This document shows positions 1 to 60,020 of a stretch of 64,000 bases of DNA, piece by piece. The position numbers and the translations under genes were made by a program. Numbering within the stretch: position 1 is the first letter of the stretch; every line of letters begins with the position of its first letter. This DNA comes from Planctomycetota bacterium (lineage in GTDB: Bacteria; Planctomycetota; UBA1135; UBA2386): NCBI GenBank assembly GCA_965223545.1, contig OZ245006.1:6720001-6784000 (forward strand), given 5' to 3'. The notes beneath the pieces were generated by a model, which worked only from the letters and a program-made list of their open reading frames with translations, did no database searches and was not told where the DNA came from.

Positions 1-2286
1 CTGTCTTCGTACGGAGGCGTCTCCAACACGCAGTATGCGGCCGTCTGGGCGCAACGATCGGGCCCGAGCTTCGTCGGGTTCAGGGACCTGACGTCGACCG
101 AATACCAGCAGCTGCTCGACTTCAGCTGCGGCAACATGACGCCGGCGCTCTTGAGCGCGACCGGGTCCGCCGCGGATCCCCGGTTCTCAGGCGTGTTCGA
201 GAAGACCGGCAACCCATGCCACGCGCGCCACGGTATCGACGAGTCCGAGCTGGCCACCGAAGTCGGCGATGCCCGCAAGAAAGGACTGCGGATCGCCAGT
301 ATCGACGCGTACGGCGACGCGTCGGACACGCGCTACGTCGTCGCGTTCGAGCCCAACGCCGAGAAACTCGGTTGGGGCCATTACATCGCTTATGGCTCTT
401 CCACCCATCAGCTGTTCTTCGACACGATGGGACAGACCCTCGCCCGCCCGGTCGATATCGTGTTCAACGACGACCGCACGAGGTTCGTGGCGGTGTGGGA
501 AGATACGTCCGTCGGTCTGTCCTACTCGCACCACGACATGACGTCGGCGGAGTACCAGGACAAGTTCGACGAGTACTTGGCCAAGGGCCATTACCCGATC
601 AACGTGCGCGCTGCGGGAACTCCCGGTGTGTTCGCCGCCACCTGGGCGAAGACCGACGTGCCGGACGGGCGCAAGTTCAGCATGACCGGAGTCGACGTCC
701 CCGAGCTCGTTCTGTTCGACAGCTGGGTGCAACAGTACATGACTGACACGGCGACCCGCGCCGCGTCGCTCGCGATCGTCAAGGACGGTCGGTTGATGCT
801 GGCGCGCGGCTACACCTGGGCCGAACAGGGCTATCCGTTGGCCCAACCCGACAGCCTCTACCGGACGGCTTCGATCAGCAAGCCACTCACCAGCATTGCG
901 GTGCATCAGGAGATGGCGCTGCAGCCGAGTGCGATCGCCTACGACACGGCGATGGCCGACCTCTTCGGCAATCCGGTCTATGCCGATCCGCAGTCCAACG
1001 CGATCCAGGTGATGCACCTGCTGACGCACACCTCGGGATGGGATCGCGACGCGCAGACCGGCAGCGGGGTGGACCCGATGTTCTACGACCGGACGATCGC
1101 CAGCGCGCTGGGGATCTCGATCCCGATCTCGACCACGGCCATCCGCCGCTACATGGAGTCGCAGATGCTCGACTTCGCGCCCGGGACCGAGAGTCGATAC
1201 TCGAACTACGGCTTCAGCCTGCTCGGGCGGATCCTCGAGGTGCTGAACCCCGGCAAGACGTATGACGACATCCTGCAGGAGCGCGTGTTCGCTCCGCTCG
1301 GCATCACGCGTGCGGGGATTGGCGCCGCGCACGTGACGGCGGCTGTGCCCGGCGAAGTGCTCTACCATCCCGCCGCGCTCGGCGTTGCGCAGAGCGTCAA
1401 CGCGGCGCTCGAACCTTGGGTGCCGTCGCAGTACGGCGGGTGGAACCAGGGCAACCTCGATGCACACGGCGGTCACGTGATCACCGCGCCCGACTACGCC
1501 AAGATCCTCGCCGCGTTCGATCTCGGCGCGCAGAACCCGATCCTCGGGCCGGTGCAGACCGCCAACATGTGGACCGAGCCGGCGGCGCCGTTCATTCAGG
1601 CCGGGCCCAACATCAACAGCGCCTACCTCAAGGGGTGGGTGCGGAACTCGGTCAAGGGGCCGGGGGGGACGAACCTGGACCTGTACGAGCACGCTGGCAG
1701 CCTGCCGGGCACGCGCACCTACATCGGCCGGCGCGAGGACGGGGTTTCCTTCGTGTTCCTCACCAATGGTCACGAAGCGCTGAACGGTGCCCACGGCGAC
1801 GAGCTCAGCTCGATCGCCAACGTCATCGGCAGCTGGCCGGACCACGACCTGTTCCCCAGCGTGGGCCTGCCCGCGTTGCGCCATGTCCCCGGCAGCGTCA
1901 ACCCGTTCGGCGCATCATGCGTCGGCAGCTTCGGCACACCGGGCACGAGCTATGTCGGCACGCCCGAGGTCGGCATGGTTTTCACCCCGACGTTGATCCT
2001 GGCGAGGCCACAGTCGCCGGCGTTTCTGTTGCTGGGCCAGCGAACGCAAGTACCGCTGCCGGGCGGCATCGGCTGCTTTCGCTACACGACGGCGGGGATG
2101 ATCCTGCCGGCGACGACCTCGCCGGCCGGGACCGCGCAGATCGCGTTGCCGATGCCTGCGACGCCGGCGTTGATCGGCTACGTCTTTGCGGCGCAGTACG
2201 CGTTCCTCGACTCGTCGGCGGGATCGGCCGGGATCGTGACGACGAACGGGCTGGACATCAAGCTCGGCGGGTGGTTGGGCTTCTGA
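1..2286 (+). CDS. Secreted serine hydrolase (beta-lactamase fold) with N-terminal BTRD1/polyglycine-hydrolase-like repeats and the shared C-terminal domain; 5' partial
   Basis: Frame is open from base 1 (LSSYGGVSNTQYAAVW...). Repeats of the type YAAVW/FVAVW/FAATW and LTSTEYQ/MTSAEYQ; catalytic SISK, YSN and HAGS motifs. Confidence 0.85.
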   Translation: MSSYGGVSNTQYAAVWAQRSGPSFVGFRDLTSTEYQQLLDFSCGNMTPALLSATGSAADPRFSGVFEKTGNPCHARHGIDESELATEVGDARKKGLRIASIDAYGDASDTRYVVAFEPNAEKLGWGHYIAYGSSTHQLFFDTMGQTLARPVDIVFNDDRTRFVAVWEDTSVGLSYSHHDMTSAEYQDKFDEYLAKGHYPINVRAAGTPGVFAATWAKTDVPDGRKFSMTGVDVPELVLFDSWVQQYMTDTATRAASLAIVKDGRLMLARGYTWAEQGYPLAQPDSLYRTASISKPLTSIAVHQEMALQPSAIAYDTAMADLFGNPVYADPQSNAIQVMHLLTHTSGWDRDAQTGSGVDPMFYDRTIASALGISIPISTTAIRRYMESQMLDFAPGTESRYSNYGFSLLGRILEVLNPGKTYDDILQERVFAPLGITRAGIGAAHVTAAVPGEVLYHPAALGVAQSVNAALEPWVPSQYGGWNQGNLDAHGGHVITAPDYAKILAAFDLGAQNPILGPVQTANMWTEPAAPFIQAGPNINSAYLKGWVRNSVKGPGGTNLDLYEHAGSLPGTRTYIGRREDGVSFVFLTNGHEALNGAHGDELSSIANVIGSWPDHDLFPSVGLPALRHVPGSVNPFGASCVGSFGTPGTSYVGTPEVGMVFTPTLILARPQSPAFLLLGQRTQVPLPGGIGCFRYTTAGMILPATTSPAGTAQIALPMPATPALIGYVFAAQYAFLDSSAGSAGIVTTNGLDIKLGGWLGF

Positions 2287-8055: not shown

Positions 8056-9912
8056 CTAGGAGCGCTGCCGCCGCGCCAGCTGCAGCAGGCTGGCCGGCAA
8101 CCGGTCGGCGGACGGCAGCACGCGGTAGCCGCCGCGGCCGAACAGCTGCGGCAAGTAGTCCACCGCGTTCTTCTGGATCGCGAGGGCGAAGCTGTCGATG
8201 CCGTCGCGGTGCGCCTCGCGGAGCGCTTGGCGCACGTCGGCGATGCCGTGACGCCCCTCGTAGCGGTCGTAGTCGGTGGGCTTGCCGTCGCTGACCAGGA
8301 GCAGCAGCTTGCGCCGCGCCGAGGCGCGGCGCAGCTGGGCTGTGGCGTGGCGCAGCGCCGGGCCGATCCGCGTGTAGCCGGTCGGGCGCAGGCCCAGCAG
8401 GGCGCGGCGCGCGTCCCGCCATGGGGTGTCGAAGTCCTTGACCTCGACGTAGTGACAGTCGCGGCGCGAGTTGCTGTAGAAGCCGGCGACGGCGATCGGC
8501 AGGTCGCGGTCGCCGGCGACTTCGCCCAGGATCAGCACCGCGTCCAGGGCGACGTCGAGCACGCGCCGGCCCTCGACCCACGCGTCGGTCGACAGGCTGC
8601 AGTCGACCAGCACCAGGGCGGCGACGTCGGGTGCCGGCTTGCCGCGGGCGACGTACAAGCGGTCGTCGAGCACCGCGGGATGGCCCTGCCGGGCGGCCTC
8701 CAGGGTGGCGAGCTGGTTGGTCAGGGCGTCGATGTCGATGTCCTCGCCGGCGCGTTGGCGCGGCACCGGTCGCCGCGAATCGGCCGCCGCCAGCAGCTGG
8801 TCGCGCAGCCGGCGGATCTGCGCCGCGTAGCGGTGCCGCACGGTGGCCTGGCGCTGGCGCACGGTCTCCGGGCTCGCCAGCGGATCCGGTGGATGCGCGC
8901 GCAGTGCGCACCAGCTGCGGCGATAGCGCCGCCGGGTCGCGTCCCACTCGTCGTAGTGGATCGCACCGCAGTCGGTCTGCTCCTCTAAGAGGTCCACCGG
9001 CTCGCCGGCGTTCTGCAGGTCGGCTTGGTAGATGGAACTGGTGGCCTCGGCAGTGCGCACGACGTGGCGCAGCTCGAGTTCGTCGAGGGCTTCACAGTGC
9101 TCGTCGAGCTCGTCGCTGCCGTCGGCGCGTCGCTTGCCTCCGCTGTACTCCTCGGCGGTGAACAGCTTCTCGAACACGTGCATCAGCGGGTTGTCGCCGT
9201 CCTCGGGAGTCGACACGGTGGTGGTGGTCACCGTCTCGCGCGGTTTGCCGCGGCGCTCGGTGCCGCGCGGCAGCGCGGAGCCATCGACGCTGGTGATGTC
9301 GGGCACGGCGGCGGTGGGGGCGTCCGTTGCCGCCGGCGACCAGCGGCCCCAGAGCAGGTGGTGTTGCGGTGTGCGCGGGGCGTCGCGTCGGGCGCGCGGG
9401 GGCGCGTCGTCCGGTCGCGCGTCGGGTGCGCGCAGCAGCCGATCGGCCCACCGGTCGAGGTCGCTCGCGCCCGGCGGGGGCGGTGGGATCGCCGCGGCCA
9501 ACCGCGCGCGCAAGCGGATGCTCCCCGGCCATTCGGCGTCGAGTCGTGGCAGCGTGCGCTCGACCGCGATCAGCATCGCCAACTCCGGGTCGTCGCCCGT
9601 GCGCTGGCCGTGGGCGTACACCGCCGCGCCGGCGATCGTCCGCAGTCGGTAGAGGTCGAGGTTGCGCTCGGCAGAGTCGAACAACTCGATCACCGCCGGC
9701 AAGTGCAGCGTCGCGCCGCGCAGCCCGCCGGCGCCCTCGGCGACGCGCACGTCGAGCGGCGCCCCGGCGACGAGCTGCGCCAGCAGCCGCAGTCTTTGCG
9801 TCAGCTCCTCGAGCTTCGCCGCCGCAGCTTGGTGGGCCGCCGGGGCTCCGGGGTGCAGCCAGCGGCGGACCGCGCGGTGGGCGGCGCCGAACAGTCTCTC
9901 GCCGACGCTCAC
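8056..9912 (-). CDS. norD: Nitric oxide reductase activation protein NorD (VWA domain)
   Basis: MIDAS-type DCSLST, YDEWD, YTRIGPALRH, LLVSDGKPTDYDRYEG; lies downstream of norQ. Confidence 0.92.
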   Translation of the reverse strand: MSVGERLFGAAHRAVRRWLHPGAPAAHQAAAAKLEELTQRLRLLAQLVAGAPLDVRVAEGAGGLRGATLHLPAVIELFDSAERNLDLYRLRTIAGAAVYAHGQRTGDDPELAMLIAVERTLPRLDAEWPGSIRLRARLAAAIPPPPPGASDLDRWADRLLRAPDARPDDAPPRARRDAPRTPQHHLLWGRWSPAATDAPTAAVPDITSVDGSALPRGTERRGKPRETVTTTTVSTPEDGDNPLMHVFEKLFTAEEYSGGKRRADGSDELDEHCEALDELELRHVVRTAEATSSIYQADLQNAGEPVDLLEEQTDCGAIHYDEWDATRRRYRRSWCALRAHPPDPLASPETVRQRQATVRHRYAAQIRRLRDQLLAAADSRRPVPRQRAGEDIDIDALTNQLATLEAARQGHPAVLDDRLYVARGKPAPDVAALVLVDCSLSTDAWVEGRRVLDVALDAVLILGEVAGDRDLPIAVAGFYSNSRRDCHYVEVKDFDTPWRDARRALLGLRPTGYTRIGPALRHATAQLRRASARRKLLLLVSDGKPTDYDRYEGRHGIADVRQALREAHRDGIDSFALAIQKNAVDYLPQLFGRGGYRVLPSADRLPASLLQLARRQRS

Positions 9913-9919
9913 CGCCGCC

Positions 9920-10714
9920 TCAGAAGGCCAGCGCGACCGCGTCGCGGAGCGCGTCCAAGACCTCGGCGTCGTCGGAGAGCGGATGCGCGATCGCGGCCTC
10001 GCACGCCGCCCGCGGCGCGATCCCCGCGCCGATCAGCCGGCCGGCGTGCACCAACAGCCGGGTGGACACCGTCTCCGCCAGCCCGAGCTCGGAGAGGTCG
10101 CGCACCTTGGCCGCGAACGCGACCAGCCGGCGCGCGGTCGCGGCGTCGACGCCCGATTCACGGGCGACGATCTCGGCTTCGACCGCTGCCTTGGGGTAGC
10201 CGAACTCGATGCCGACGAAGCGCTGCCGCGTCGACGGCTTCATCTCCTTGAGCGCGCTCTGGTAGCCGGGGTTGTAGGACATGACCAACAAGAAGCCCTC
10301 GGCGGCCGGCAGCGCCAGGTCGCGCCGGTCGAGGTAGAGCGTGCGCCGGTGGTCGGCGAGGGGGTGGAGTACGACGATGACGTCGTCGCGCGCCTCGGCG
10401 ACCTCGTCGAGGTAGAGGATCGCGCCGCGGCGCACCGCCCGGGTCAGCGGGCCGTCTTGCCAGACGGTCTCGCCGGCCTCGACCAGGTAGCGGCCGAGCA
10501 GGTCGACCGCCGAGGTCTCCTCGTTGCACGCGACGGTGACCAGCGGCCGCTCGAGCGCGGCCGCCATCGCCTCGACGAAGCGCGACTTGCCGCAGCCGGT
10601 CGGCCCCTTGAGCAGCACCGGCAACTTGGCGCGATGCGCGGCGCGAAACAGCGCGCACTCGTCGCCGGTGGCGCGGTAGTAGGGCGCCTCGGGCGTGCGC
10701 ACCGCGTCGTTCAC
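9920..10714 (-). CDS. norQ: NorQ/NirQ/CbbQ AAA+ ATPase
   Basis: GPTGCGKSRF, YLDEVAEAR, SYNPGYQS, MKPSTRQRF; GTG start overlaps the norB stop. Confidence 0.95.
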   Translation of the reverse strand: MNDAVRTPEAPYYRATGDECALFRAAHRAKLPVLLKGPTGCGKSRFVEAMAAALERPLVTVACNEETSAVDLLGRYLVEAGETVWQDGPLTRAVRRGAILYLDEVAEARDDVIVVLHPLADHRRTLYLDRRDLALPAAEGFLLVMSYNPGYQSALKEMKPSTRQRFVGIEFGYPKAAVEAEIVARESGVDAATARRLVAFAAKVRDLSELGLAETVSTRLLVHAGRLIGAGIAPRAACEAAIAHPLSDDAEVLDALRDAVALAF

Positions 10715-12102: not shown

Positions 12103-12105
12103 CGC

Positions 12106-12813
12106 TCAGGCTCCCTTGAGCTGCGAGAGGAAGGCCACCAGCTCGGTGATGTCGGCTTCACTGAGCGGCAGCTTCGGCATCTTGCTGTCGGCCTTGATCG
12201 CGAGTGGGTCGCGCAGCCACTTGGTGATGAACTCGGTGGTCAGCCGGCCGCCGACGCCGTCGAGGGCCGGCCCGATGGCGCCGCCCTGCCCGTTGAGCGC
12301 GTGGCAGGCGATGCACATCTGGTTGAAGATGCGGGGACGATCGCTGGCCGCGGCAACCAGGGATTGGTCACCGGTGGCGGCGGGCACGGCGGTTTGGATC
12401 AGGTCGGGCTCGGCGGGGAAGCCGTTGAGGTCCATCTCGCCGATCCACTGCAGGAACGCGACCATGTCGTCGAGCTGGCCCTCGTCGAAGTCGTACTTCT
12501 GCATGCGCCGCCGGCCCGGGTACATCGCCTCCGGGTCGGTCAGCATGGCCCGGATGAACGCCTCGCCGCGGCGCTCGTAGACCTTGGTCAGCTCCGGCGC
12601 GTAGTACGCGCCCTCGCCGAGCAGCGTGTGGCAACCCATGCAGTTGCTGGTATCCCAGAGGTGCTTGCCGCGGACCACGGCGGGAGTCATGCGCTCTTGG
12701 TTGGTCTGCTCGGGAATCTGCGCCAGCGTGTCGACCGTCAGCAGGCCGAACGCGGCAAAGCAGACCCCGGTGCCGAGCACGAAGAACGTGCGCGCGCCCT
12801 TCTTGGATAACAC
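12106..12813 (-). CDS. norC: NorC cytochrome c subunit with an extra C-terminal heme c domain
   Basis: N-terminal TM, CMGCHTLLGEGAYYAPEL; second site CIACH..GPAL...MP. Confidence 0.9.
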   Translation of the reverse strand: MLSKKGARTFFVLGTGVCFAAFGLLTVDTLAQIPEQTNQERMTPAVVRGKHLWDTSNCMGCHTLLGEGAYYAPELTKVYERRGEAFIRAMLTDPEAMYPGRRRMQKYDFDEGQLDDMVAFLQWIGEMDLNGFPAEPDLIQTAVPAATGDQSLVAAASDRPRIFNQMCIACHALNGQGGAIGPALDGVGGRLTTEFITKWLRDPLAIKADSKMPKLPLSEADITELVAFLSQLKGA

Positions 12814-12841
12814 GAGAGGCTCCTGAGCTGAGGGTTGGAAG

Positions 12842-14304: not shown

Positions 14305-14351
14305 CGTCGGCTCTCGGCCCAGCGGGAAGGGGAGTGGTTGACGGCGGCGTG

Positions 14352-15794: not shown

Positions 15795-15813
15795 GGAGGT
15801 CCTCCTGGACCCA

Positions 15814-16350: not shown

Positions 16351-16378
16351 CGAGCGAGACGAGGCCCGTGCCCCGACT

Positions 16379-17598: not shown

Positions 17599-19449
17599 GT
17601 GATGCGAATGCTCTGCTCGTTCTTCTGCATCGTCGCCGGCATGAGCGCGGTCGTCCGGGCGCAGTCGCCCGACGGAGGGCCGCCCGCTGCTGCCGAGCAC
17701 GTGTTCGTCTGGGTCAGCGGTCCGACCGGCACCTTTGACGCGCTGCGCGCCGCCGGCTACGACGACCACGACGCGGTGTGGCGCGTCGCCCGTGGTCAGG
17801 AGCACGCCGGCGTCATCCTGCCGAGCGCCGACCTCGCGGCGCTGCGCGCCGAGCTGCCGGTCGCCAGCCTGGTCCGCGTGGTCCGCAGCTCGAAGCCGCT
17901 GCGCGACGCGCCGCGCGTCGGCCGCGCCGGTCCCGACCCGCGCTATCGCACTCCGCAGGAGGTGTTGGCGGGGCTCAACGACTTGGCGACGACCTATCCC
18001 GGTCTGGCCGCCGTGTACGACTTGCAATCGCGCTACGGCGCGCCGCTGACGCACGAGGGCCGGCGCATCCACGTGCTGCGCATCTCGGACAACGCCGGCA
18101 TCGACGAGGACGAGCCGTCGATTCTGGTGTTCGCCAACAACCACGCGCGCGAGCTCAACACGATCGAGGCGGCGTTCTCGGTCGCCGAGCGGTTGCTGGG
18201 CGGGTACGCCACCGACCCGGTGCTGCGCCAGCTGGTCGACGACCATCAGATCTGGGTGCTGCCCAGCATGAACCCGGATGGGCTCGCCTACGTGTGGAGC
18301 ACCAACGACATGTGGCGCAAGAACCGCCGCGACAACGGCAACGGCACGTTCGGCGTCGACCTCAACCGCAACTACTGGTTCTACTGGGGACGGTGCGGGG
18401 CCAGCACCAATCCGGGCAGCGACACCTACCAGGGCCCGTCGGCCGGGTCCGAGCCCGAGTCGCAGGCGATGCGCGCGTTCACTCTGGCCGAGGGCTTCGA
18501 GCGGATGATCGACGTGCACAGCTACGGCCGTGACGTCCGCCACCCGTTCAACCCGCTGCTGATCGGTCAGGTGCCCAACGCGATCGCGCAGGCCTATTAC
18601 GGCATGCAGAGCGCGATCGCCAACGGCATGGGCTACGTCACCCGCGGCACTTGCTGCTGTGGAACGCACATGGAGTGGCACCACGCCGCGCACGGCACAC
18701 TCGGGCAGCTGATCGAGATGGGGACCGCGTTCCAGCCGCCGTTCACCCAGACGCAGTCCGAGGTGACGCGCATGTGGCCCGGGTTTCGCGAGTTCTTGAC
18801 GCGGCCAGTGCCGTTGCGTGGCCGCGTGCGCTCGGTTCGCGGTGGTGCGCCGGTGGTCGCCGACCTGGTAGTGCGCGGGCACCAGTTCCGCAATGGCCAG
18901 CGGGTGCAGTCGATCGGCCGCTTTGGCCGCTACCACCTCTGGATCACGCCGGGTAGCTACGAAGTCGAGTTCCGCGCGCCGGGCCACGACCCGCAGACGC
19001 TGGTCGTCAACCTGACCAGCGGCGGCACGGTGGAGCGCGATGTTTGGTTGGTGCCGTCGGCCCGGCCGACGACGCTGACCGCGCAGGGCGCCCCGCGCCT
19101 GGGCCAGACGGTGGCGCTCGATCTGTCGAGTCCCGACGACCCGGGTGCGCCGTACTTCTTGCCCGTGTCCGACGCGGTCGCGCCGCCGATGGCGCTCGGC
19201 TTTGGCCGCAGCTTGCCGATCGCGCGCAGCATCCTGCTGGAGATCGAGCTGGCCGCGCCGCAGGTGTTCCAAAACGTGCTCGGCGTGCTCGATGGCCAAG
19301 GGCGCGGTCAGGGGCGCCTCGCCGTGCCGGCGGATCCGGCGCTCGTCGGCCTCACGCTCCACTTCGCGGGCGTGACGTTGGACGCCTCGTACCTGAGTGG
19401 CGTGCGCGGCATCACGGCGCAGAGCGTGCCGCTGACGATCGCGCGCTGA
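17599..19449 (+). CDS. Secreted M14 zinc carboxypeptidase with regulatory-like domain and the shared C-terminal domain
   Basis: HARE, WRKNR, GVDLNRNY, SEPE, DVHSY. Confidence 0.9.
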   Translation: MMRMLCSFFCIVAGMSAVVRAQSPDGGPPAAAEHVFVWVSGPTGTFDALRAAGYDDHDAVWRVARGQEHAGVILPSADLAALRAELPVASLVRVVRSSKPLRDAPRVGRAGPDPRYRTPQEVLAGLNDLATTYPGLAAVYDLQSRYGAPLTHEGRRIHVLRISDNAGIDEDEPSILVFANNHARELNTIEAAFSVAERLLGGYATDPVLRQLVDDHQIWVLPSMNPDGLAYVWSTNDMWRKNRRDNGNGTFGVDLNRNYWFYWGRCGASTNPGSDTYQGPSAGSEPESQAMRAFTLAEGFERMIDVHSYGRDVRHPFNPLLIGQVPNAIAQAYYGMQSAIANGMGYVTRGTCCCGTHMEWHHAAHGTLGQLIEMGTAFQPPFTQTQSEVTRMWPGFREFLTRPVPLRGRVRSVRGGAPVVADLVVRGHQFRNGQRVQSIGRFGRYHLWITPGSYEVEFRAPGHDPQTLVVNLTSGGTVERDVWLVPSARPTTLTAQGAPRLGQTVALDLSSPDDPGAPYFLPVSDAVAPPMALGFGRSLPIARSILLEIELAAPQVFQNVLGVLDGQGRGQGRLAVPADPALVGLTLHFAGVTLDASYLSGVRGITAQSVPLTIAR

Positions 19450-41552: not shown

Positions 41553-42701
41553 TCAGGGCGCGAGAGTGCGCATCGCCGGCAGCGTGAGCGTGGCGCTGCC
41601 GGTGGGCAGCAGCACCGCGGCCTGCAGGGCCAGCGGGGTCAGCGGCGCGTTCACCGGAATCGGAAACGCGCCCGTGAGGCTACCGCCGCCGCCGATGGTC
41701 CCGGCCTGCAGCACGGCCCACGGGGTGCCGACGAACCACGTGCCCAACGGCCCGGCCGCGATCGGTGCCGCGGGCAGCCCGGCGACCAAGACGCTGGCCG
41801 ACCCAGCGGGCGCGTGTACGGCCGTCGCCAGCTGACCCGCGACGACGCTGGCGTCGGTCCACGGCACCGTGGTCGCGATCCAGGTGACCGGTCCCTCGAC
41901 CAGACCGGCGCCGTTCACCGGCACCAGCGACAGGCCGAAGTCGGTGCGCACGGTGGTGAGCGAAGCGCTCGTGCTGGCCTGGCCGTCGACCGCCGGCGCG
42001 GGCAGCGGGCCGCCGGTGCCGGCGGCGATCGAGGCGCCGGGGCCTCCGGAGGCGGCGAGGGTGGCGTCGCGGATGGCGACGCCCGGCCCGGGGCCGACGG
42101 TCGCGTTCCCCGGGCCGCCGACCAGGACCGTCTCGGCGGCGGCGACGCGTCCTCGGAGCACGGTCATCGCCGGCGCGCCGACGGCGGTGGCGCGCAGGTC
42201 GCAGCGGTGCAGCACGACACCACTGCTCGCCGTGTGCAGGGCCTCGCCCGCGGTCGCGGTCGCCGTCACCGCCTGCAGCGACACGCGCCCACTCTGCACC
42301 AGTCGAATGCCACCGCCGAGGCGCAAGCTCTCGAGGTGGACCTGGCCGGTGCTGCCGCTGACCGATACCTGGGCCGGCGAGGTGAAGCCGCGCACCAGGG
42401 TCGGCCCGTCGACCAGATCGATGCGGATCACGTCGCCGGCACTGCCCACCGTCACGCCGGGAAAGGCCTCCACCGTCAGGTGCGTCAGCGCGATCGAGAA
42501 CGACGAGTAGGCGCCCGGCAGCACGGTGATCCGGTCGCCCGGCGCAGCGGCGGCGATCGCCGCGGGAATGTCGGTGAAGTTTCCGCCGCCGCCGGCGGCG
42601 ACGACCCAAGTCGTCTGTGCCGGGGCGCTGCTGACGGTCACGGCGGCGATGACGAGGCCGGCGGCAGCGGCCGGCGGGGCGAGGAGCGAAAGGGTCGGCA
42701 C
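41553..42701 (-). CDS. Secreted protein, probable beta-helix, with the shared C-terminal domain
   Basis: Signal peptide, FTDIPAAIAAAAPGDRITVLPGAY (pectin-lyase-like cap); start uncertain. Confidence 0.7.
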   Translation of the reverse strand: MPTLSLLAPPAAAAGLVIAAVTVSSAPAQTTWVVAAGGGGNFTDIPAAIAAAAPGDRITVLPGAYSSFSIALTHLTVEAFPGVTVGSAGDVIRIDLVDGPTLVRGFTSPAQVSVSGSTGQVHLESLRLGGGIRLVQSGRVSLQAVTATATAGEALHTASSGVVLHRCDLRATAVGAPAMTVLRGRVAAAETVLVGGPGNATVGPGPGVAIRDATLAASGGPGASIAAGTGGPLPAPAVDGQASTSASLTTVRTDFGLSLVPVNGAGLVEGPVTWIATTVPWTDASVVAGQLATAVHAPAGSASVLVAGLPAAPIAAGPLGTWFVGTPWAVLQAGTIGGGGSLTGAFPIPVNAPLTPLALQAAVLLPTGSATLTLPAMRTLAP

Positions 42702-45008: not shown

Positions 45009-45119
45009 AGACTTGCGGCGGACCGCGACGGCGGGCGGGCGGTCTGCCCCTGCCCGTTACCGCAGCGGTTTTCTCGAATACCCGGGTGCCGTCCCCGCGA
45101 GCTTGTTTGGCAGCAGACA

Positions 45120-48391: not shown

Positions 48392-49696
48392 TCAGAAGCC
48401 GATGGTCCAGTCGAGGCCGTCGCTGAACACCAGGCCCGACGCCGTCATCGGGTTGACCACATCGACGACGACCGCCTGCAGGAACAGCTGGGCGCCGACC
48501 AAGTTGGTGTTGTTCGGAATCGGGAACGAGAAGCTGGTCGTCGGCGGGCTGGTGACGAAGTTGACGTCCAGCAGCGGCGGGCTCACCAGCGCGGTGGCGC
48601 CGAGGAACGGCAACGCGAGCGGCGTGGTGCCGATCACCAGCAGGCCTGGCTCGGCGCCCGACGCGGCGTAGCTGAGGTCGAAGGCGCCGACGTCGCCGAT
48701 CGAGGGATCGGTGACCGGCACCAGGTTGGCGGTGCCGAACGCGGGGTGCGGCGGGTTGGTGCCGTAGATCGACGAAGCGCCCGCCGTGCCGATGCGCAGG
48801 TTGTCGATCAGGCCGAAGCTGAGGGCCGCGTTGTCGGAGATCGACGAGAAGATGTCCATGTAGCCGACGGTCACTGAACCGTCGCTGGCAAACGGTGCGC
48901 CGATGCCGGCGTCGAGCGCGGCGATCGCCAGTCCGTCGACGGACCAGGTCACCAGCGGTGCTCCGCCGGTGCCGCCGTCCACGTCGATCACGATCTCGAC
49001 CTCGTGCCATTCGAAGCCGAACGAGCCGGGCTGGCTGATGCCGGTCTGCTGCGGGAACCCGCCGGCCGCGGCGGCACCCTGCACCGGCAGCGCGCCGACG
49101 TCGATGCTGCCGAATTGCGCGTAGTACGGGTCGCTGGCGTTGTGCGCGCCACCACCGGCACTGGAGCTGCCGGCGAAGAACTGGCCGCTCTCGGCGAACT
49201 GCTCGCTGCCGTCCTTGTAGCCGCGGTAGTCGCGCGACGAGCCGCCCTCACCGGTCGCGGCAAACCAGGCGCCGGTGCCGGAGCCGCCGATGTTGGGGGT
49301 GCTGCCGTCACCGCCCGCGCCGCAGGTGATGAACTCGGTCGAGCCGGTGCCCCCGCCCGGGAACGGGCCGTTGGCGTTGACCCAAGCGTCGAAGCGGATG
49401 ACGCGGTCGCCCGTGTAGGTCTGCACCGTGTGCAGCGTCACCGCGTTGGCCGCGCCCGCGGTGATGTTGGCCTCGAACTTGACACCCAGCGTCGTGCCGC
49501 CCGTGGTGTTCGGCGCGGGTGGAATGCCCATCGAGCTGTAGTCGAACAGGAACGTCGCGAACGCGTCACCGGTCGAGGCGACGATGTAGCTCGCCGAGGT
49601 GTCGGTGTCGAAGTCGTCCGACACGATCTGGGCGTTGGCGACGGAGGCGCACGCGGCGGTGAGCGCGGCGGCGTGGAGCAGGCGGTTGTGATCCAT
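48392..49696 (-). CDS. Secreted hypothetical protein (beta-sandwich/lectin-like) with the shared C-terminal domain
   Basis: Signal peptide ANA-Q; DDFD...FDYS..GIPPAPN; IDNLRI; good codon bias. Confidence 0.8.
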   Translation of the reverse strand: MDHNRLLHAAALTAACASVANAQIVSDDFDTDTSASYIVASTGDAFATFLFDYSSMGIPPAPNTTGGTTLGVKFEANITAGAANAVTLHTVQTYTGDRVIRFDAWVNANGPFPGGGTGSTEFITCGAGGDGSTPNIGGSGTGAWFAATGEGGSSRDYRGYKDGSEQFAESGQFFAGSSSAGGGAHNASDPYYAQFGSIDVGALPVQGAAAAGGFPQQTGISQPGSFGFEWHEVEIVIDVDGGTGGAPLVTWSVDGLAIAALDAGIGAPFASDGSVTVGYMDIFSSISDNAALSFGLIDNLRIGTAGASSIYGTNPPHPAFGTANLVPVTDPSIGDVGAFDLSYAASGAEPGLLVIGTTPLALPFLGATALVSPPLLDVNFVTSPPTTSFSFPIPNNTNLVGAQLFLQAVVVDVVNPMTASGLVFSDGLDWTIGF

Positions 49697-49975: not shown

Positions 49976-52330
49976 ATGCTCTGCTCCCTTCCGCTCTCAT
50001 CACTCGCGATCCGCCCGGTGGCCGCGATCGCTGCACTCACCGCGGCCGCCACGACATCGCCGCCGGCCGCCGCCCAGGATCCGGCCACCGCCACCGATCC
50101 CGAGGTCCGGCTGCAGCGCTACGCCCGCCACCTGGAGAAAGTCGAGAACTCGCCGCACGGCGCGCTGCGCTGGCAGTTCCTCGGGCCGACCAACATCAGC
50201 GGCCGGGTGACCGACGTCGCGGTGCCGGCGCCGCGTGGCGAGAGCTACGCGATGTATGTCGCCGGTGCCTCCGGCGGAGTGTGGAAGACCGACAACGAGG
50301 GCACGACCTGGACGCCGGTGTTCGAGCACGCGCCGTCGACGTCGATCGGCGACGTCACGGTGGCGCCGTCCGATCACGACGTGGTCTGGATCGGCACCGG
50401 CGAAGCCAACATCTTCCGCAGCTCGATGGCCGGTTGTGGCGTCTACAAGTCCATCGATGCCGGGGCGTCGTGGCAGCACATGGGACTCGCGGCGACCCAC
50501 ACCGTGGCGCGCATCGTGGTCCACCCGGCCGATCCCGACGTCGTCTACGTCGCCGCTTCCGGCCACGAATGGACCGACAACCGCGAGCGCGGCGTGTTCA
50601 AGAGCACCGACGGCGGCCAGACCTGGGAGCACTCGCTCTACATCGACGACCGCACCGGGGCCATCGATCTGGTGCTCGATCCGTCGGACCCCGAGACCCT
50701 CTACGCCGCCACCTGGGAGCGCGTGCGCAAGCGCTGGAACGACCCGCGCAACGAGGATGGCTACGACGGCAGCGGCATCTACAAGAGCACCGACGGCGGC
50801 TTGGTGTGGACGCCGTGCAACACCGGGTTGCCCGGTGCGCGGTGGCGCGGCCGGATCGGCATCGACCTGTGCGCCGCGCAGCCGCGCACTCTGTACGCGT
50901 TCGTCGACAGCTACGAGCTGGTTGACGAGGAGCCGGAGGGCACCGATTCGTACGGGAGGCCGATGCGGCGGCGCATCGAGGGGGCGCAGATCTACCGCAG
51001 CGACGACGGCGCGGAGTCCTGGCAGCGGGTGAGCCCGGCCGACGAGGCGATGCGCCGCCACTCGGGCACGTATGGTTGGGTGTTCGGTCAGATCCGCGTC
51101 GATCCCACCGACCCCGATGTGGTCTACACGATGGGGCTCGGGCTGCACGTGTCGCGCGATGGCGGCCGGACCTACCGGCGGTTGCGCGGCATGCACGGCG
51201 ACCACCATGCGCTGTGGATCGATCCCCGCAACCCCCGCTACCTGGTCAATGGCAACGACGGCGGGGCGGTGGTGTCCTACGACGGCGGCGAGACCTGGAA
51301 GTCGTTCACCGAGGGGCTGCCGATGGTGCAGTTCTTCAACGTCGGCGTCGACATGGCGGAGCCGTTCCGCGTCTACGGCTCGATCCAGGACCACGGCAGC
51401 TTCCGCGCGCCGGTCGAGCTGTCGAAGGGGCGCGACGCCATCCCCGCGCAGCGCTTCGAGCGCGCGCCGGGCGGCGAGGGCTCGAGCCACGCGATCGACC
51501 CCACGGACCCGGACACCGTCTACGCGGCCGGCTTCTACGGCCGGATCCACCGCACCGACATGCGCAGCGGCGACCGGCGCAACCTGGTGCCGCGGGCCGC
51601 GGAGGGCGAGGCCCCGCTGCGCGGTCAGTGGGTGGCGCCGTTCGTCCTGTCGCCGCACAACCCGCGGATCCTCTACCACGGGATGAACGCGCTGTTCCGC
51701 TCCTGGGATCGCGGCGAGGTGTGGGAGCAGATCAGCGGTGATCTCAGCTACGGAGACGCGGAGACCCGCGGCGACATCCCGTACCACACGATCTCGACCA
51801 TCGCCGAGTCGCCGTTCGCGTTTGGCCGGCTGTACGTCGGCACCGACGACGGCCGTGCGTGGACCACGCCGGACGGTGGTGGCGAATGGCAGGAGATCAC
51901 CGCCGGGCTGGCCTCCGATCGGTGGATCTCGCGGGTCGAGGCCTCGCGCCACGCCGAGGGCCGCTTGTTCCTGGCGCAGAACGGCAAGCGGCACGACGAC
52001 TTCCTCCCGTATCTGTGGGTGTCCGAGGACCACGGCGCGCACTGGCGCAGCCTGGCCGACGACATCCCGCTCGGGCCGATCAACGTGGTGCGCGAGGATC
52101 CGGTGCGCGCCGACGTGCTCTACGTCGGCACCGACCTGGGCGTCTACTCGAGCTGCGATCGCGGCCTCACTTGGCAGGCGTTGGCTGCTGGAATGCCGTC
52201 GACGTTCGTGCACGATTTGGTCGTGCACGAACGAGACCACCTGTTGGTCGCGGCCACGCACGGCCGCGGCATGTTCGTTCTGGATGTGCGTCCGCTGCAC
52301 GAAGGCGGCGAAGACGAGGCGCCCAAGTGA
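49976..52330 (+). CDS. Sortilin/VPS10-like BNR-repeat protein (glycosyl-hydrolase-like)
   Basis: GPTNISGRVTD, GGVWKT, many S.DGG.TW Asp-boxes, HGDHHALW, THGRG; start uncertain. Confidence 0.88.
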   Translation: MLCSLPLSSLAIRPVAAIAALTAAATTSPPAAAQDPATATDPEVRLQRYARHLEKVENSPHGALRWQFLGPTNISGRVTDVAVPAPRGESYAMYVAGASGGVWKTDNEGTTWTPVFEHAPSTSIGDVTVAPSDHDVVWIGTGEANIFRSSMAGCGVYKSIDAGASWQHMGLAATHTVARIVVHPADPDVVYVAASGHEWTDNRERGVFKSTDGGQTWEHSLYIDDRTGAIDLVLDPSDPETLYAATWERVRKRWNDPRNEDGYDGSGIYKSTDGGLVWTPCNTGLPGARWRGRIGIDLCAAQPRTLYAFVDSYELVDEEPEGTDSYGRPMRRRIEGAQIYRSDDGAESWQRVSPADEAMRRHSGTYGWVFGQIRVDPTDPDVVYTMGLGLHVSRDGGRTYRRLRGMHGDHHALWIDPRNPRYLVNGNDGGAVVSYDGGETWKSFTEGLPMVQFFNVGVDMAEPFRVYGSIQDHGSFRAPVELSKGRDAIPAQRFERAPGGEGSSHAIDPTDPDTVYAAGFYGRIHRTDMRSGDRRNLVPRAAEGEAPLRGQWVAPFVLSPHNPRILYHGMNALFRSWDRGEVWEQISGDLSYGDAETRGDIPYHTISTIAESPFAFGRLYVGTDDGRAWTTPDGGGEWQEITAGLASDRWISRVEASRHAEGRLFLAQNGKRHDDFLPYLWVSEDHGAHWRSLADDIPLGPINVVREDPVRADVLYVGTDLGVYSSCDRGLTWQALAAGMPSTFVHDLVVHERDHLLVAATHGRGMFVLDVRPLHEGGEDEAPK

Positions 52331-55300
52331 GGCGGCCCGGCGGCCGACTCGGCGTGCGTCGGCTCGTCCGCGTCGCCGGGCTCGCGTTGCTCGCGCTTGG
52401 CGCGCCTGTCCGCGCGCAGGAAAGCACGCCGGTCGACTTCGACCGCGACATCCGCCCACTGCTGTCGGCCAAGTGCTTTCGCTGCCACGGCCCCGACGGC
52501 GAGCACCGCAAGGCAGGGCTGCGGCTGGACACCTGGGCCGGCGTCACCGCCGTCGGCAAGCGCGGCGCGGCGGTGGTCCCCGGAGAGCCGGAGCGCAGCC
52601 TGTTGGTGCAGCGCATCGCGCACGCCGATCCGCGCGAGCGCATGCCGCCGCCGCGCGCCGGCGAGCCGTTGGATGCCGCCGAGCGCGAGCGGCTGATCCG
52701 CTGGATCGAGCAGGGAGCACCTTGGGCGCAGCACTGGGCGTTCGTGCCGCCAGCGGCCACGACTCCGCCGGGAGGTGCGCCTCCGGGGAGCGAGATCGAC
52801 GCGTTCGTGCGCGCGCGCCTCGCCGAGCGCGGCATGCAGCCGGCGCCCGCCGCCGACCGCGCCCGGTTGCTGCGCCGCGTCACCCTGGACCTCACCGGCT
52901 TGCCGCCGGCGCCACACGAGCTCGACGCGTTCTTGGCTGATACCGGCGCCACCGCCTACGAGCGCGTCGTCGATCGCCTGCTGGCCTCACCGCGCTACGG
53001 CGAGCACATGGCGCGCTTCTGGCTCGACGCCGCGCGCTACGGCGACACCCACGGCCTGCACCTCGACAACTACCGGGAGATGTGGCCCTACCGGGATTGG
53101 GTGATCGACGCCTTCAACCGCAACCTGCCGTACGACGCGTTCGTCACCGAGCAGCTGGCGGGCGACCTGCTGCCGGACGCGACGCTGGAGCAGCAGATCG
53201 CATCGGGCTTCAACCGCTGCCACGTGACCACCAACGAGGGCGGCTCGATCGTCGAAGAGGTCTACGTGCGCAACGTCGTCGACCGGGTGAGCACGGTGGG
53301 CACGGCGATGATGGGGCTGACGGTCGGCTGTGCCGTGTGCCACGACCACAAGTTCGATCCGATCACCCAGCGCGACTTCTACGCGATGTTCGCGTTCTTC
53401 AACAATCTCGACGGCAAGGCGATGGACGACAACGCGGCGCAGCACCATCCGGTGGTGCGGGTGCCGTCGGCCGAGCAGGCGGCGGCGCTGGCTGCCCTCG
53501 AGGCGGAGCGCACGGCCGCGGAGACCGCGGTGGTCGCGCTGGTCGATGCCCATGAGTACTCCGAACCGGTGGCGGCCGCGCCGGCAGCGCCCCGGCGCGA
53601 GGTCGTCTGGATCGACGATGCGCTGCCGCCGGGTGCCGAGGCCGAGGGCGATGGCTTGGAATGGGTCGAGGCACCCCGCGCCCTGGTGCACAGTGGACGG
53701 CTGGCGATGCAACGCCGCAGTCGCGGGCTGCAGCAGCACTCGTTCCGCCGCGCCGACGTCAAGCTCAGAGTCGGCAGCGGCGACGTGCTGTTCGCCTGGG
53801 TGCGGGTCGACCCGCGCGATCCGCCGCGCGCGATCATGCTGCAGTGGAACGGCGATGGGCAGGACGACTGGGACCACCGCGCGTTCTGGGGCGAGGATGT
53901 GATCGATTACGGCGAGTCCGGGACCGCGGCGCGCTTCCCGGCGGGACCGTTGCCGCGGCCCGGCGTGTGGACGCGGCTCGAGGTACCCGCCGCGGCGGTA
54001 GGCTTCGCGCCGGGCGCCGCGGTGCACGGCCTGGCGATCACCCAGTTCGACGGCACCAGCCAATGGGACGCGATCGGCGCCGAGACCAGCGCGCCGCAAG
54101 ACGCCGAGGATCACGTTTGGATCGACGACGCGCTGCCGCGTGGCGCGGTGCCCGGCGGCGATGGACAGACCTGGAGCTTCGGTGCTGCCGGAGCGCAGCC
54201 GGTGCTGCGCGGCGGGCTGAGCCTGCGCCGCAGCGGTGGCGACGGGCTCAACCAGGACTACTTCACCGGGGCGCGGCCGTTGCGGATCCAGCACGGCGAC
54301 CGCCTGTTCGCGCACGTCTGGTTGGATGCCGAAGACCCGCCGCGGGGGGTGCAGTTGCAATTCCACAGCGGCGGGTGGGGTCATCGCGCCCGCTGGGGAG
54401 TCGAGGCGCACGGCGCCGGTGCGGAGGGCGGCGCCGACTTCGTCGCCGGACCGCTGCCGCCGCGCGGTCGCTGGGTGCGGCTCGAGGTCGGTGTCGAGGA
54501 CGTCGGTCTGCGGCCGGGTGCGCGCGTCGACGGCTGGGCGTTCACGCAGGTCGGCGGCACCGTCTATTGGGATGCGGCGGGAGTGCGCACGTTCGGTCCC
54601 CCAGACGCGCGGGCCCGAACTTCGCTGCGGGCGTGGACCGAGGTGGCGGCCGCCGACGCCTCCCTTCCGCAGCCCTTGCGCGAAGCGGCCGCTGCGGCGG
54701 CGCCCAGCGTCGATCAGCGGCAGTTGCTGCGCCGCCACTATCTGCGCCACGAGTACGTCCCGCTGCGGGCGGAGGTCGAGCCGCTGCAGCGCGCCGTGGA
54801 CGCGGTCCTAAAGCAGCTGGATGCCCTGGAGGCCGAGGTGCCGACCACGCTGGTGATGGCCGAGCGCGACGAGCCGCGGCCGGCCTACGTGCTGGTCCGG
54901 GGAGAGTACGACGCGCGCGGCGAGCAGGTCGAACCCGCCATTCCGGCAGCGCTGCCGCCGATGGGGTCGGATCTGCCGCGCGACCGGCTCGGCTTCGCCC
55001 GCTGGCTCACCGATGGCCGCCATCCGCTGACGGCGCGGGTGTTCGTCAATCGCCTGTGGCAGCAGCTGTTCGGCACCGGCTTGGTGGAGACCGCCGAAGA
55101 CTTCGGCAATCAGGGCGCGCGGCCGACGCACCCGAGGCTGCTGGACTGGCTGGCGTGCCGTTTCGTCGCCGACGGCTGGGACGTCAAGCGGATGCTGCGC
55201 CGCATGGTGCTGAGCGAGACCTACGCGCAGACCTCGTCGGCCGCGCCCGAGGTCCTGGCGCGCGATCCGAACAACCGCTGGTTGGCCCGCGGGCCGCGGC

Positions 55301-55953
55301 ATCGGCTCGATGCCGAGGTGTTGCGAGATGCGGCGCTGGCCTACGCCGATCTCTTGGTCGAGCGCATCGGTGGACCCGGAGTCAAGCCGCCGCAGCCGGC
55401 CGGACTGTGGAAGGCGGTGGGTTACGTGGGCTCCAACACCGCCGAGTTCACCGCCGACCAGGGCGCGGACAAGGTGCACCGGCGCAGCATCTACACGTTC
55501 TTCAAGCGCACCGCGCCGCCGCCGCAGCTCAGCACCTTCGACGCGCCGAGCCGCGAGGTGTGCGTGGTGCGGCGCGAACGCACCAATACGCCGCTGCAGG
55601 CGCTGCTGCTGATGAACGATCCGCAGTTCGTGGAGGCGTCGCGCGGCGTCGCCCGGCGCGTGCTGTCGGCGCACGGCGCAGCGGGCGACGAGGCGGTGGC
55701 CGAGGCGTTGCTGCGGCTCGTGCTGTGCCGGCCGGTGGACCCCGCCGACTGCGACGACGTGCTGGCGCTGTTGCGCTCCGAACGCGCCGCGTTCGCCGCC
55801 GCTCCCGATCGCGCCGCGGCCCTGCTCTCGATCGGCGCGGTCTCGATCGGCGAGGAACCGCCCGAGCTCGCGTTCGACGCGATCGAGCTCGCCGCCTGGA
55901 CCCTCGTTGCCAGCACCGTGCTCAACACCCACGAGGCCGTCACCAAGAGCTGA
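52327..55953 (+). CDS. Planctomycete cytochrome C + DUF1549 + DUF1553 (PSD1) protein
   Basis: [54 protein letters not shown]. Confidence 0.92.
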
Positions 55954-55964
55954 AGGACATCGAC

Positions 55965-57440: not shown

Positions 57441-60020
57441 GTGTCGGCCCGGTCGCCAGCGGCTATTCTTGGAGTGGTCCCACACGCCAACGAGAGCACC
57501 GCAACCTTGCTTGACCCAACCCCGCGCCGGCGTCCGGCGCTGCCCCTTTGGGCGTTCTCGGCCGTCTTCGCGATCGCCGCTCCAGCAACCGGCCAGACCC
57601 CCAACCCGCCGCTGGTCCCGTTCACCAGCGTGAACTTCCCCAACGGCTTGGAGTTCGGCTGGTCGCTCGGGATCTCCTGCGGCGACTATGACGCCGACGG
57701 CTTCCCTGACCTCTACAACCACCTGACCGGCGAGTTGTGGCGCAATCTGGGTGGCCAGGACTGGGAAATCGCCAGCAACCTGTTGTCCGGGCCAGTGGCC
57801 TTTCGCTACGGCTCGTCGTTCGGGGACTACGACCGCGACGGCCTGCCCGACATCGCCACCGAGCCGCGCAAGGGCTACTGCTTCCAGCTGTTCCACAACG
57901 ACGGCGGCGGCCAGTTCACCGACATCGCCGAGGGGACGGCGTCGTTCGCGGTCACGCCGTGCGACGAGTTCGCCGAGACCGCGGCGTGGGGCGACGTCGA
58001 CTTCGACAACGACCTCGATCTGTTCCTGCCGACTTATCCCGCCTTCGTCGGCGGCACGCAGCCCAACTACTTTTGGCGCAACAACGGTCCGGTCGGCGTC
58101 GGCGGCGCCTACGTGTTCGAGGAGATGGCGGCGGCGGTCGGGCTACTCGTGCCGGTCGGCAACAACCGGCCCGAGGGCGCGCAGCTGTGCGACTACGACT
58201 TCGACGGCGACCTGGACCTCTACAGCAACGGCAGCCTGTACCAAAACCAGTCGACCCTGGGGCAGCCGGCCTTCGCCGCGATGGCGGAGGCGGCGTCGGG
58301 CATCGGCCTCAGCTCGGTGCTCGACGAGGGAGCGCTGTTCTTCGACCACGACCTCGACGGTGACTTCGACATCCTGGCGGCCTACGTGGGGGTCGGCGTG
58401 GTGATCTGGGAGAACCGCGGCGATGGCACGTTCTTCCAGCTCGATCCGTCGGCGATCGCCAGTCCGACGGCCGGCGTCGACTTCGGCGTCTCCGCCGAAG
58501 ACTGGGACAACGACGGCGACCTCGACTTCAACTCGCAGTTCGCCTTCCGCCGCAACATGCTGGTCGAGACCGGGCAGCGCCAGTACGTCGTCAGTCTGGG
58601 GCAGCTGGACCCCGCGCACTTGATCCGGCCGACGGTGGCGTGGGCGGACTTCGATCTGGACGGTGATCTCGACGCGGCGATCGGCAACTTCTGGCCGGAG
58701 AACGACGGCACCGGCGCGCTGTACGACAACGCCCTCTACGACGCCAGCACGCCGGCGGCGCAGCGCCGGCATCTGCGCGTGCGGCTGATGCGCGACGAGA
58801 GCTTTGCGCGCGGCAGTGAGACCGAGTTCGGTGCCCGCGCCGAAGTGCGCGTCGCCGGGGAGCAGGGCGTGCGACGCACCAAGTTCGTCGCCAGTGGCCA
58901 CGGCTACCTCAACCAGAACGAGTACACCCTGCACTTCGGCATCCCGTCGGCGGGTGGCGCGACCGTGCTCGACGTGGTCGCCGAGTTTCCAAACGACCCG
59001 GCGGTGGGTGGGTGGCGGGTCGACCGGCACGTCAATCCGCTGCTCGGCGGGCTCGTGTTGGAGGCGCTGGGCGACCGCGAGGTCGTCGTCTTCCGCAGTG
59101 GTCGGGCGGTCGTCGACGGCTGTGACGTCACCCCGAACCCGGTGGAGTCGCCGCTGACCGCGAGCACGCCGGCGCTGGTGCTGCCGAGCGCGACGGCCGG
59201 CCTGGTTCCGCCGGTGACCGCGGCGCGGGACACGTTCGTCGGCATCGACATCACGACCGGCGCGCAGGCGCTCCGCGTGACCGAGCTCGTCGTCGACGGC
59301 GTGGTGACCCAGGGCGGCGTCGCCAACGTGCTCTGGTGGGACACGACCAACGCGAGCACGCCGGTCTTCGTCGACGCGCGCGTCGAGGTCACCGAGCCGC
59401 GCAACGACCGCAGCTACTTGGTCGAGGACCGGATCCTGGCGCCGCAGCGGAGCTATCGAGTTGTCGTCGCCGTCGACTCGACGCGGGCGACGCCGATCGC
59501 GGCGCCGGTCACGACGGGCGGGCTGACGACCAACGGTGGCTTGTTGTTTCGCGACCGCGAGCCGCTGAGCGGCGCGCGCGTGCGCAACGCGCGGACGGAT
59601 CCTGGCGCGGCCTATGTCTCCGTGCGCTTCCGGCCGGCGCTCTTGGGCGTGCCCATCGACCTCGGCAACGCGGTGCCGAGCGCGGCGGGCGGCAGCGCGG
59701 TCCTGCAGATGACGGGTACCATCGCCGGCGGGCAAACGGTGACCCTCGCAGCCTCCGGTCTGCCGGCGAATGGCCAGGCGTTCCTGGCGATCGGCCAGGG
59801 CGTCGAGTGTCTGCCCATCGGCACCGGCACGGTGCTGGTGCCAGCGGCAGCGGCGGTGGCCATGGTGCCGGTCTCGGCCAGCGGCACCGTCTCGCTTTCC
59901 GCGACGTGGCCCGCGGGGTTGCCCACCGGCGTCGAGCTGGCGTCGCAGATCTGGTACGACGACAGCGCGGCTGGCGGCACTCTGGCGACGAGCAACGTCG
60001 TGCTGGTGCGCAGCCCCTGA
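57441..60020 (+). CDS. FG-GAP/VCBS repeat (CRTAC1/ASPIC-like) secreted protein with the shared C-terminal domain
   Basis: Repeated D(Y/F)DxDGDxD; G.GYL.Q....LHFG; true start may be slightly downstream. Confidence 0.85.
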   Translation: MSARSPAAILGVVPHANESTATLLDPTPRRRPALPLWAFSAVFAIAAPATGQTPNPPLVPFTSVNFPNGLEFGWSLGISCGDYDADGFPDLYNHLTGELWRNLGGQDWEIASNLLSGPVAFRYGSSFGDYDRDGLPDIATEPRKGYCFQLFHNDGGGQFTDIAEGTASFAVTPCDEFAETAAWGDVDFDNDLDLFLPTYPAFVGGTQPNYFWRNNGPVGVGGAYVFEEMAAAVGLLVPVGNNRPEGAQLCDYDFDGDLDLYSNGSLYQNQSTLGQPAFAAMAEAASGIGLSSVLDEGALFFDHDLDGDFDILAAYVGVGVVIWENRGDGTFFQLDPSAIASPTAGVDFGVSAEDWDNDGDLDFNSQFAFRRNMLVETGQRQYVVSLGQLDPAHLIRPTVAWADFDLDGDLDAAIGNFWPENDGTGALYDNALYDASTPAAQRRHLRVRLMRDESFARGSETEFGARAEVRVAGEQGVRRTKFVASGHGYLNQNEYTLHFGIPSAGGATVLDVVAEFPNDPAVGGWRVDRHVNPLLGGLVLEALGDREVVVFRSGRAVVDGCDVTPNPVESPLTASTPALVLPSATAGLVPPVTAARDTFVGIDITTGAQALRVTELVVDGVVTQGGVANVLWWDTTNASTPVFVDARVEVTEPRNDRSYLVEDRILAPQRSYRVVVAVDSTRATPIAAPVTTGGLTTNGGLLFRDREPLSGARVRNARTDPGAAYVSVRFRPALLGVPIDLGNAVPSAAGGSAVLQMTGTIAGGQTVTLAASGLPANGQAFLAIGQGVECLPIGTGTVLVPAAAAVAMVPVSASGTVSLSATWPAGLPTGVELASQIWYDDSAAGGTLATSNVVLVRSP

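Follow-up and report, generated by a model that had tools for sequence, protein, structure and literature searches.

A large, uncatalogued domain family on putatively exported proteins of a Planctomycetota group

Five unrelated proteins encoded in one stretch of a planctomycete genome end in copies of the same domain of about 125 residues, and this domain is a real, very large, uncatalogued family. We propose that the domain is not cleaved off and that it serves as a non-covalent anchor or docking module on the envelope for mature exported proteins, a reading to which we give about an even chance. The window that we analysed is a stretch of 64,000 nucleotides (C1:6720001-6784000) from the genome under study, G000, which is 8.1 Mb with 70% G+C and is 91% complete; named homologues and ESM Atlas clusters indicate Planctomycetota as its phylum. 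Positions below are those of the window unless a contig is named.

An initial annotation of the window had noticed a common tail on five secreted proteins with unrelated cargo. All five open reading frames, and the motifs quoted from them, are present where it placed them (41553 and 48392 are stop-codon ends, as both genes are on the minus strand), and the cargo parts are indeed unrelated. The serine hydrolase gene (1..2286, plus strand; BTRD1 repeats and Beta-lactamase) has its start some 160 bases before the window's first position. Its protein has a signal-like peptide ending in AQ, and its domain copy (1891..2271, plus strand) is of a two-cysteine type. The second gene (17608..19449, plus strand) encodes an M14 carboxypeptidase with a CarboxypepD_reg domain and also has a signal-like peptide ending in AQ; its domain copy (19048..19446, plus strand) is cysteine-less, with a longer insert. 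The next two genes encode exported proteins without a Pfam family, and we use “beta-helix” and “lectin-like” for them only as the labels of the initial annotation. The beta-helix protein (41553..42701, minus strand) has a signal-like peptide followed by AQ and carries a short, divergent type of the domain (41556..41894, minus strand). The lectin-like protein (48392..49696, minus strand; domain at 48395..48781, minus strand) has homologues elsewhere with PEP-CTERM or other tails. The fifth gene (57441..60020, plus strand; FG-GAP_3 and ASPIC/UnbV) encodes a signal-like peptide followed by GQ, and its true start is probably slightly downstream of 57441; its domain copy spans 59646..60014 (plus strand).

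We also noticed several other features of the window. The genes between the serine hydrolase and M14 genes (8056-17539) appear to form a cluster for a nitric-oxide reductase and a copper nitrite reductase, together with genes for an Rrf2 regulator and an NnrS-like protein. Two tandem pairs of genes (42815-47212, plus strand), flanked by the carrier genes for the beta-helix and lectin-like proteins, presumably encode ECF-sigma-like and anti-sigma-like proteins. Two adjacent paralogous exported proteins of 301 residues (19496-20401 and 20759-21664, minus strand) have similar C-termini and do not contain the domain. No Rfam matches were found in the window.

The pairwise likeness of the five tails is weak (phmmer E from 1e-5 to 0.26 in the five-sequence set), so the significance of the family comes from the genome-wide search. 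A profile seeded with the serine-hydrolase tail alone and iterated on six-frame open reading frames picked up the lectin-like (E = 8.9e-11) and M14 (E = 4.7e-6) tails in round 2 and the FG-GAP tail (E = 1.2e-4) in round 3, and no reversed decoy scored below 1e-4. A trimmed profile of 127 columns then matched 338 open reading frames in G000 at E < 1e-3 and none of the reversed ones. Its E values for the serine-hydrolase, lectin-like, FG-GAP and M14 tails were 4.5e-21, 6.5e-15, 1.6e-6 and 9.3e-5. The beta-helix tail was missed by this profile and was recovered (E = 2.2e-13) by a second profile, built from divergent weak members, which also matched the M14 tail at 3.9e-17. HHalign aligned the second profile to the first with a probability of 98.3%. 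Genome-wide profiles and this link between them show that the five tails are one family. The shared motif that was first described is not invariant, however: the M14 tail lacks the conserved glutamine and the beta-helix tail lacks the N-terminal cysteine segment. We ruled out a low-complexity artefact, as the trimmed profile had no reversed decoys and the second profile matched none of 2,869 mid-protein segments at E < 1e-3.

Together, the two profiles identify about 409 carrier genes among the 5,858 that our simple in-house gene finder called in G000, or around 7% of genes. Since some of the 409 are fragments, we state the count as about 400. Many matches had been expected, and this is many. 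Paralogous copies of the domain are only about 27% identical, and the main-profile carriers have cargo parts from 123 families, of which 87 have a single member. Carriers adjoin another carrier more often than expected (147 versus 55). Outside this genome, the domain profile matched 34,003 representatives of clusters at 50% identity. (A word-index search with the domain alignment returned just 2 proteins, which reflects the limits of that method, given the 34,003 profile matches.) The idea that the tail is specific to a lineage also fits: in a survey of 151 genomes of the phylum Planctomycetota, the profile found the domain in 29, of which 28 had from 9 to at least 29 matches and one had a single match. 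The alignment behind this survey, the count of 34,003, the catalogue searches and the fold model has 66 rows (65 in frame; the FG-GAP tail row is out of frame).

Conserved columns of the domain include G-x-x-C early in the sequence, P-x-x-G, a hydrophobic strand with a final G, a hairpin with P-L-x-L...G-C-x-L, then L-P-I-P-x-x-P-x-L-x-G, and S/T-N-G/A. A glutamine is conserved in 94% of rows. Among 260 rows, 155 have both cysteines, 70 have neither and 35 have one (odds ratio 36); the two cysteines covary as a disulfide would. The domain is hydrophobic, with a median GRAVY of +0.52 across 263 domains as compared to -0.07 for 886 cargo segments. Similarly, only 7.9% of its residues are charged, versus 17.6% in the cargo, and its median net charge is 0. 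Neither a conserved last residue nor a transmembrane tail was seen in the domain copies.

An AlphaFold2 model of the serine hydrolase's copy, with a pLDDT of 96, is all-beta with one short helix turn. As had been anticipated, it is a confidently predicted Ig-like beta-sandwich, without a close solved relative. Foldseek gave no matches below E = 1e-3, and the neighbours from VIA-align are generic Ig-like folds, the best with Z = 7.9 and none at 8 or above. (The absence of a match in these lists does not show that the fold is new.) These neighbours, such as the macroglobulin domains of TEP1r (2pn5) and C5 MG4 (6rpt), CHIR-AB1 (2vsd), neocarzinostatin and the ML-domain, share the core of the sandwich over about 90 aligned residues, at 4–15% identity and an rmsd of 2.7–3.3 for the best rows. 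We read this resemblance of a predicted model as a common beta arrangement and do not take it to indicate kinship or function. The same goes for weak, generic Ig-like neighbours with lipid or ligand pockets (NPC2, GM2-activator, MD-1 and neocarzinostatin; E above 7e-3 and TM 0.3–0.4).

The domain had been described as matching no known module, and we found no significant match for it in Pfam, NCBIfam or PDB sequences. Its neighbours in the ESM Atlas are unnamed Planctomycetota clusters (0.97), and in literature that was mainly open-access, supplements aside, we found no paper that describes it in its title or at the start of its abstract. We considered whether the domain might bind substrates, as a CBM-like or lipid-binding module, and direct enzymes to polymers or particles outside the cell and not to the cell itself. 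Many of the cargoes are hydrolases, and the Ig-like fold gives generic matches of the CBM56 type (Z = 6.8), without a Pfam or PDB sequence match. However, column statistics show no conserved row of surface aromatics, one module is attached to 123 cargo families that include non-enzymes, and on homologous cargo the domain is swapped for cell-anchoring tails, not for CBMs (see below). We consider such a module very unlikely.

The carriers had been expected to have signal peptides. A hydrophobic stretch followed by A/G/S-Q is found near the N-terminus of 263 of 336 carriers, as compared to 895 of 4,688 other genes. A signal-peptide score was passed by 280 of the 336 carriers and by 2,295 of the 4,688 others; this scorer is crude and separates the sets poorly, so the case for export rests mainly on the AQ, GQ or SQ motif and on the N-termini as read. 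We found no Tat motif among the carriers, and their lipobox-like matches resembled ordinary signal peptides. A glutamine directly after the predicted signal peptide is frequent in proteins with and without the domain, both in G011, a second carrier genome, and in the window (for instance at 19496-21664, minus strand; 24749-26266, minus strand; and 50018-55953, plus strand). We rejected it as a domain-specific signal because many window proteins without the domain share it. This pattern is similar to the Bacteroidetes Q-rule. PMC5837995, the paper on that rule, makes no mention of the word Planctomycetes. A search of G000 for a type I glutaminyl cyclase (PF05096) had no match.

Is the domain a C-terminal signal? 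Of the 338 copies in G000, 301 (89%) lie within 10 residues of the C-terminus, 2 lie at 11–20 residues, and 22 have an extension of 21–50 residues. This bias is stronger than a freely placed binding module would need, which counts against our proposal of an anchor. But, contrary to what the initial annotation had predicted, the tail is not always C-terminal. Thirteen copies are over 100 residues from the protein end: 7 are N-terminal, directly after the signal peptide, and 6 are internal. Furthermore, 9 of 13 short carriers consist of only a signal peptide and the domain. In the 2.26 Mb of G011 that we examined, 8 of 26 copies are N-terminal, with 195–642 residues behind them, and the domain is N-terminal in 5 of the best 150 of the 34,003 database matches. 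Matches independent of position had been named as grounds for refuting a sorting signal, and the N-terminal, internal and stand-alone copies partly supply those grounds, even though most copies are still C-terminal. Because of these copies, the domain fits a binding module better than a C-terminal signal that is cut.

About 22 carriers have an extra tail of 30–43 residues after the domain that ends in G-x-V...P-V-hydrophobic, such as G000 C1 6823047-6824144 (minus strand) and 2283497-2285948 (plus strand). Judging from its sequence, this tail is possibly a second signal or an added hairpin.

Copies that stand alone might instead be filler subunits, if the domain self-associates into a putative surface coat or scaffold that displays the cargo. 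The exported stand-alone copies, the very hydrophobic composition and the very high number of paralogues are what such a coat would lead us to expect. But a regular lattice would be hard to build from paralogues with so little identity, and we think that a coat is quite unlikely.

We compared the domain to three kinds of sorting or docking tails. The type A C-terminal domain (CTD) of the type IX secretion system (T9SS) of Bacteroidota (TIGR04183, Por_Secre_tail) is similar in many ways: many unrelated proteins exported by Sec end in it, it folds as an Ig-like beta-sandwich, a glutamine after the signal peptide is common, and it is restricted to a lineage. T9SS CTDs are cleaved after export and replaced by A-LPS. 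Our predicted model has the Ig-like fold of a T9SS CTD, with no specific match to a solved one. In contrast to these CTDs, the domain has about 125 residues instead of 72 model positions, it has a hydrophobic hairpin and a cysteine pair, and it also occurs N-terminally, internally and alone. Neither the five full proteins nor the 66-row alignment matched TIGR04183 or the Pfam model of the T9SS tail. The T9SS tail model was not found in G000, and SprA (PF14349) had no match there, in searches that had no positive-control match. PorV (PF19572) was not found in G000 or in the 28 other carrier genomes (86–97% complete), and the control matched in Bacteroides.

These results bear on whether the domain is a cleaved C-terminal signal, like the T9SS CTD, for an undescribed outer-membrane translocon. 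The preponderance of C-terminal copies, the Ig-like fold, the presence of many copies in a genome or none, and the glutamine after the signal peptide as in Bacteroidetes would all suit a cleaved signal. However, such processing could not take place in the N-terminal, internal and stand-alone copies, no conserved cleavage motif is seen ahead of the domain, PorV was not found in the 29 carriers, and a partial screen of shared exported proteins (described below) brought out no unnamed large barrel. We also screened the G000 proteome with a barrel heuristic; its output was noisy, and no unnamed translocon emerged convincingly. We judge a cleaved signal to be unlikely. Of the initial suggestion of a secretion or surface-attachment system, it is the attachment half that fits better; a processed C-terminal secretion signal is unsupported, given the positions of the copies, the negative search for a T9SS shuttle, and the results for exosortase below.

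PEP-CTERM proteins and exosortase (PF07589 and TIGR02595; PF09721) resemble the domain in that they occupy the same slot on the same cargo, with signal peptides and with many copies in a genome or none (PMC1569441). In contrast to the short motif, transmembrane helix and basic tail of PEP-CTERM, the domain is folded and globular. We did not find the PEP motif, transmembrane helix and basic tail in the domain, and TIGR02595 was not found in G000 in a search that had no positive-control match. Exosortase was not found in G000 and is present in 11 of the 28 other carriers and in 14 of 49 non-carriers, so it is neither required nor excluded, and we reject mutual exclusion between the domain and exosortase.

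Dockerins dock non-covalently and are flexible in position. Like the domain, the GC-type dockerin (NF041540) and the type I dockerin are terminal modules on exported enzymes of other Planctomycetota, and a dockerin can replace the domain on M14 proteins. But no dockerin profile matched the domain, which has few acidic residues, and its all-beta model has no paired calcium-binding loop-helix repeats. As the initial annotation stated, then, the domain matches none of these recognised tails. From these comparisons, it appears to work like PEP-CTERM, dockerin or T9SS tails and is a member of none of them.

Homologues of the cargo show which tails take the domain's place. We compared the tails of 120 listed homologues of the lectin-like protein: 22 (including the protein itself) end in the domain, 80 end in PEP-CTERM (by Pfam or by motif), 18 have other tails, and none have both. 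By eye, 8 of the 18 other tails are dockerin-like; 4 that we scanned had no NCBIfam dockerin match. Among homologues of the M14 protein, P0131, P0137, P0164 and P0238 have the domain (by eye), while P0247 matches the GC-type dockerin NF041540 above the cut-off and P0167 matches it below. Because PEP-CTERM or a GC-type dockerin replaces the domain on the same cargo, we propose that it fills the slot of envelope-anchoring tails. We also noticed that five of the lectin-like homologues (P0024, P0043, P0051, P0052 and P0062) share an unnamed tail of about 55 residues with the pattern W...Y...W...F-F/Y-R; two of these that were scanned matched choice-of-anchor D below the cut-off.

If the domain is an anchor, then Sec would export the cargo, whose N-termini are signal-like with A|Q, and signal peptidase I would presumably cut it. 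The domain would fold outside the cytoplasm, where, given the covariation and the predicted fold, a disulfide would link the N-terminal loop to the protruding hydrophobic hairpin in most copies. Its presumed hydrophobic surface may then bind a common target in the envelope, either a membrane lipid or a shared protein partner. The cargo would stay in the periplasm or cross the outer membrane, perhaps via the type II secretion system encoded in the genome.

The initial annotation had suggested profiling for a cognate translocon or peptidase; this gave no PorV and no requirement for exosortase, but it did give a candidate partner, the P0127 family. Of 1,918 genes called in G011, 1,239 had a match in G000, and we scanned 66 hand-picked shared exported proteins against Pfam. 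Sixteen of the 66 had no Pfam family, and we profiled five of these across the 29 carriers and 31 non-carriers; this set was drawn from 82% of one genome and leaves out the other 11 and all polytopic membrane proteins. P0127 was the tightest of the five, matching all 29 carriers but just 5 of the 31 non-carriers. (As a single query it matched 26 of the 29 and 5 of the 31; a six-row alignment matched each of the 23 carriers that remained, and no non-carriers beyond these 5.) We rejected the other four as specific partners because they are too widespread (28/29 carriers versus 14/31 non-carriers, 29/29 versus 28/31, 28/29 versus 10/31, and 28/29 versus 26/31).

Members of the P0127 family have about 700 residues, a signal-like peptide with AQ, and no Pfam family (G000 C1:699861-701957). 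The predicted structure (pLDDT 74) has a TPR-like N-terminal half followed by beta domains, with an FnIII-like domain at the C-terminus, and had no Foldseek match below 1e-3. In G000 and G011, the gene is at the end of the gsp cluster for type II secretion, behind serS in G000 (the secretin is assigned by a match and the other gsp labels by reading), and in G033 it faces an N-methyl pilin-type gene. In three of the five matching non-carriers, and also in the weak carrier G116, the P0127-like matches are in frames of about 270–500 residues; in the non-carriers G024 and G027, they are in frames of 664 and 755 residues. A divergent domain profile still found no domain in the five non-carriers and gave two weak matches in G116. 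In G099, there is a P0127-like match with one in-frame TGA (C13:52749-53549, minus strand).

P0127 raises another possibility: the domain might be a folded export tag that is read in the periplasm by an adaptor, such as P0127, which hands the cargo to type II secretion. The distribution of P0127, its signal-like peptide with AQ, and its location by gsp or pilin genes would all fit an adaptor, and a folded tag could act at either terminus. However, the carriers score as kin of the query genome, so a fast-evolving marker of the clade would have the same profile; only 5 of the 16 family-less candidates were profiled; and G024 and G027 have P0127-like matches without being carriers. Also, serS is next downstream of the P0127 gene or close to it in G000, G096, G099 and G122, so its linkage to gsp may be inherited gene order. 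We regard an adaptor-read tag as rather unlikely. On these sequence comparisons, P0127 is a candidate partner, and a lead only, as the kinship of the carriers may explain its distribution.

While looking for machinery, we noticed other exported proteins in G000. A protein of 1,738 residues with a pseudopilin-like N-terminus and no Pfam family (L058:641-5854, plus strand; G000 C1:1839657-1844912, minus strand) is found in 42 of 60 Planctomycetota genomes, and a conserved family-less protein of 481 residues adjoins it. A type IV pilus cluster (G000 C1:365837-409505; labels by reading) includes four large exported proteins (643–1,290 amino acids) with related C-termini. And a pair of short secretins (G000 C1:1170056-1175088) has as neighbours a GspK-like gene and the gene of a small, conserved, exported protein (the labels other than secretin are by reading).

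At its most speculative, the evidence might be combined into one system. A group of Planctomycetota would have an undescribed form of surface display, with a position-independent tag on up to 7% of the proteome, P0127 as the adaptor, transfer across the outer membrane, and anchoring by the hairpin: a cleavage-free counterpart of T9SS and PEP-CTERM. We consider this full picture improbable.

With an unnamed module on about 7% of the genes of one genome and in 34,003 clusters, the family is among the larger unannotated domain families. The domain labels the exported proteins of a group of Planctomycetota that is mostly uncultured, so annotators could recognise those proteins by its profile alone. 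If the domain is an anchor that is not cleaved, as we propose, and can act from either end of a protein, then it would be a novel mode of attachment for proteins on a diderm envelope, and it might serve as a display tag. With the domain and one candidate partner in hand, the placement of hydrolases in these bacteria can now be put to the test.
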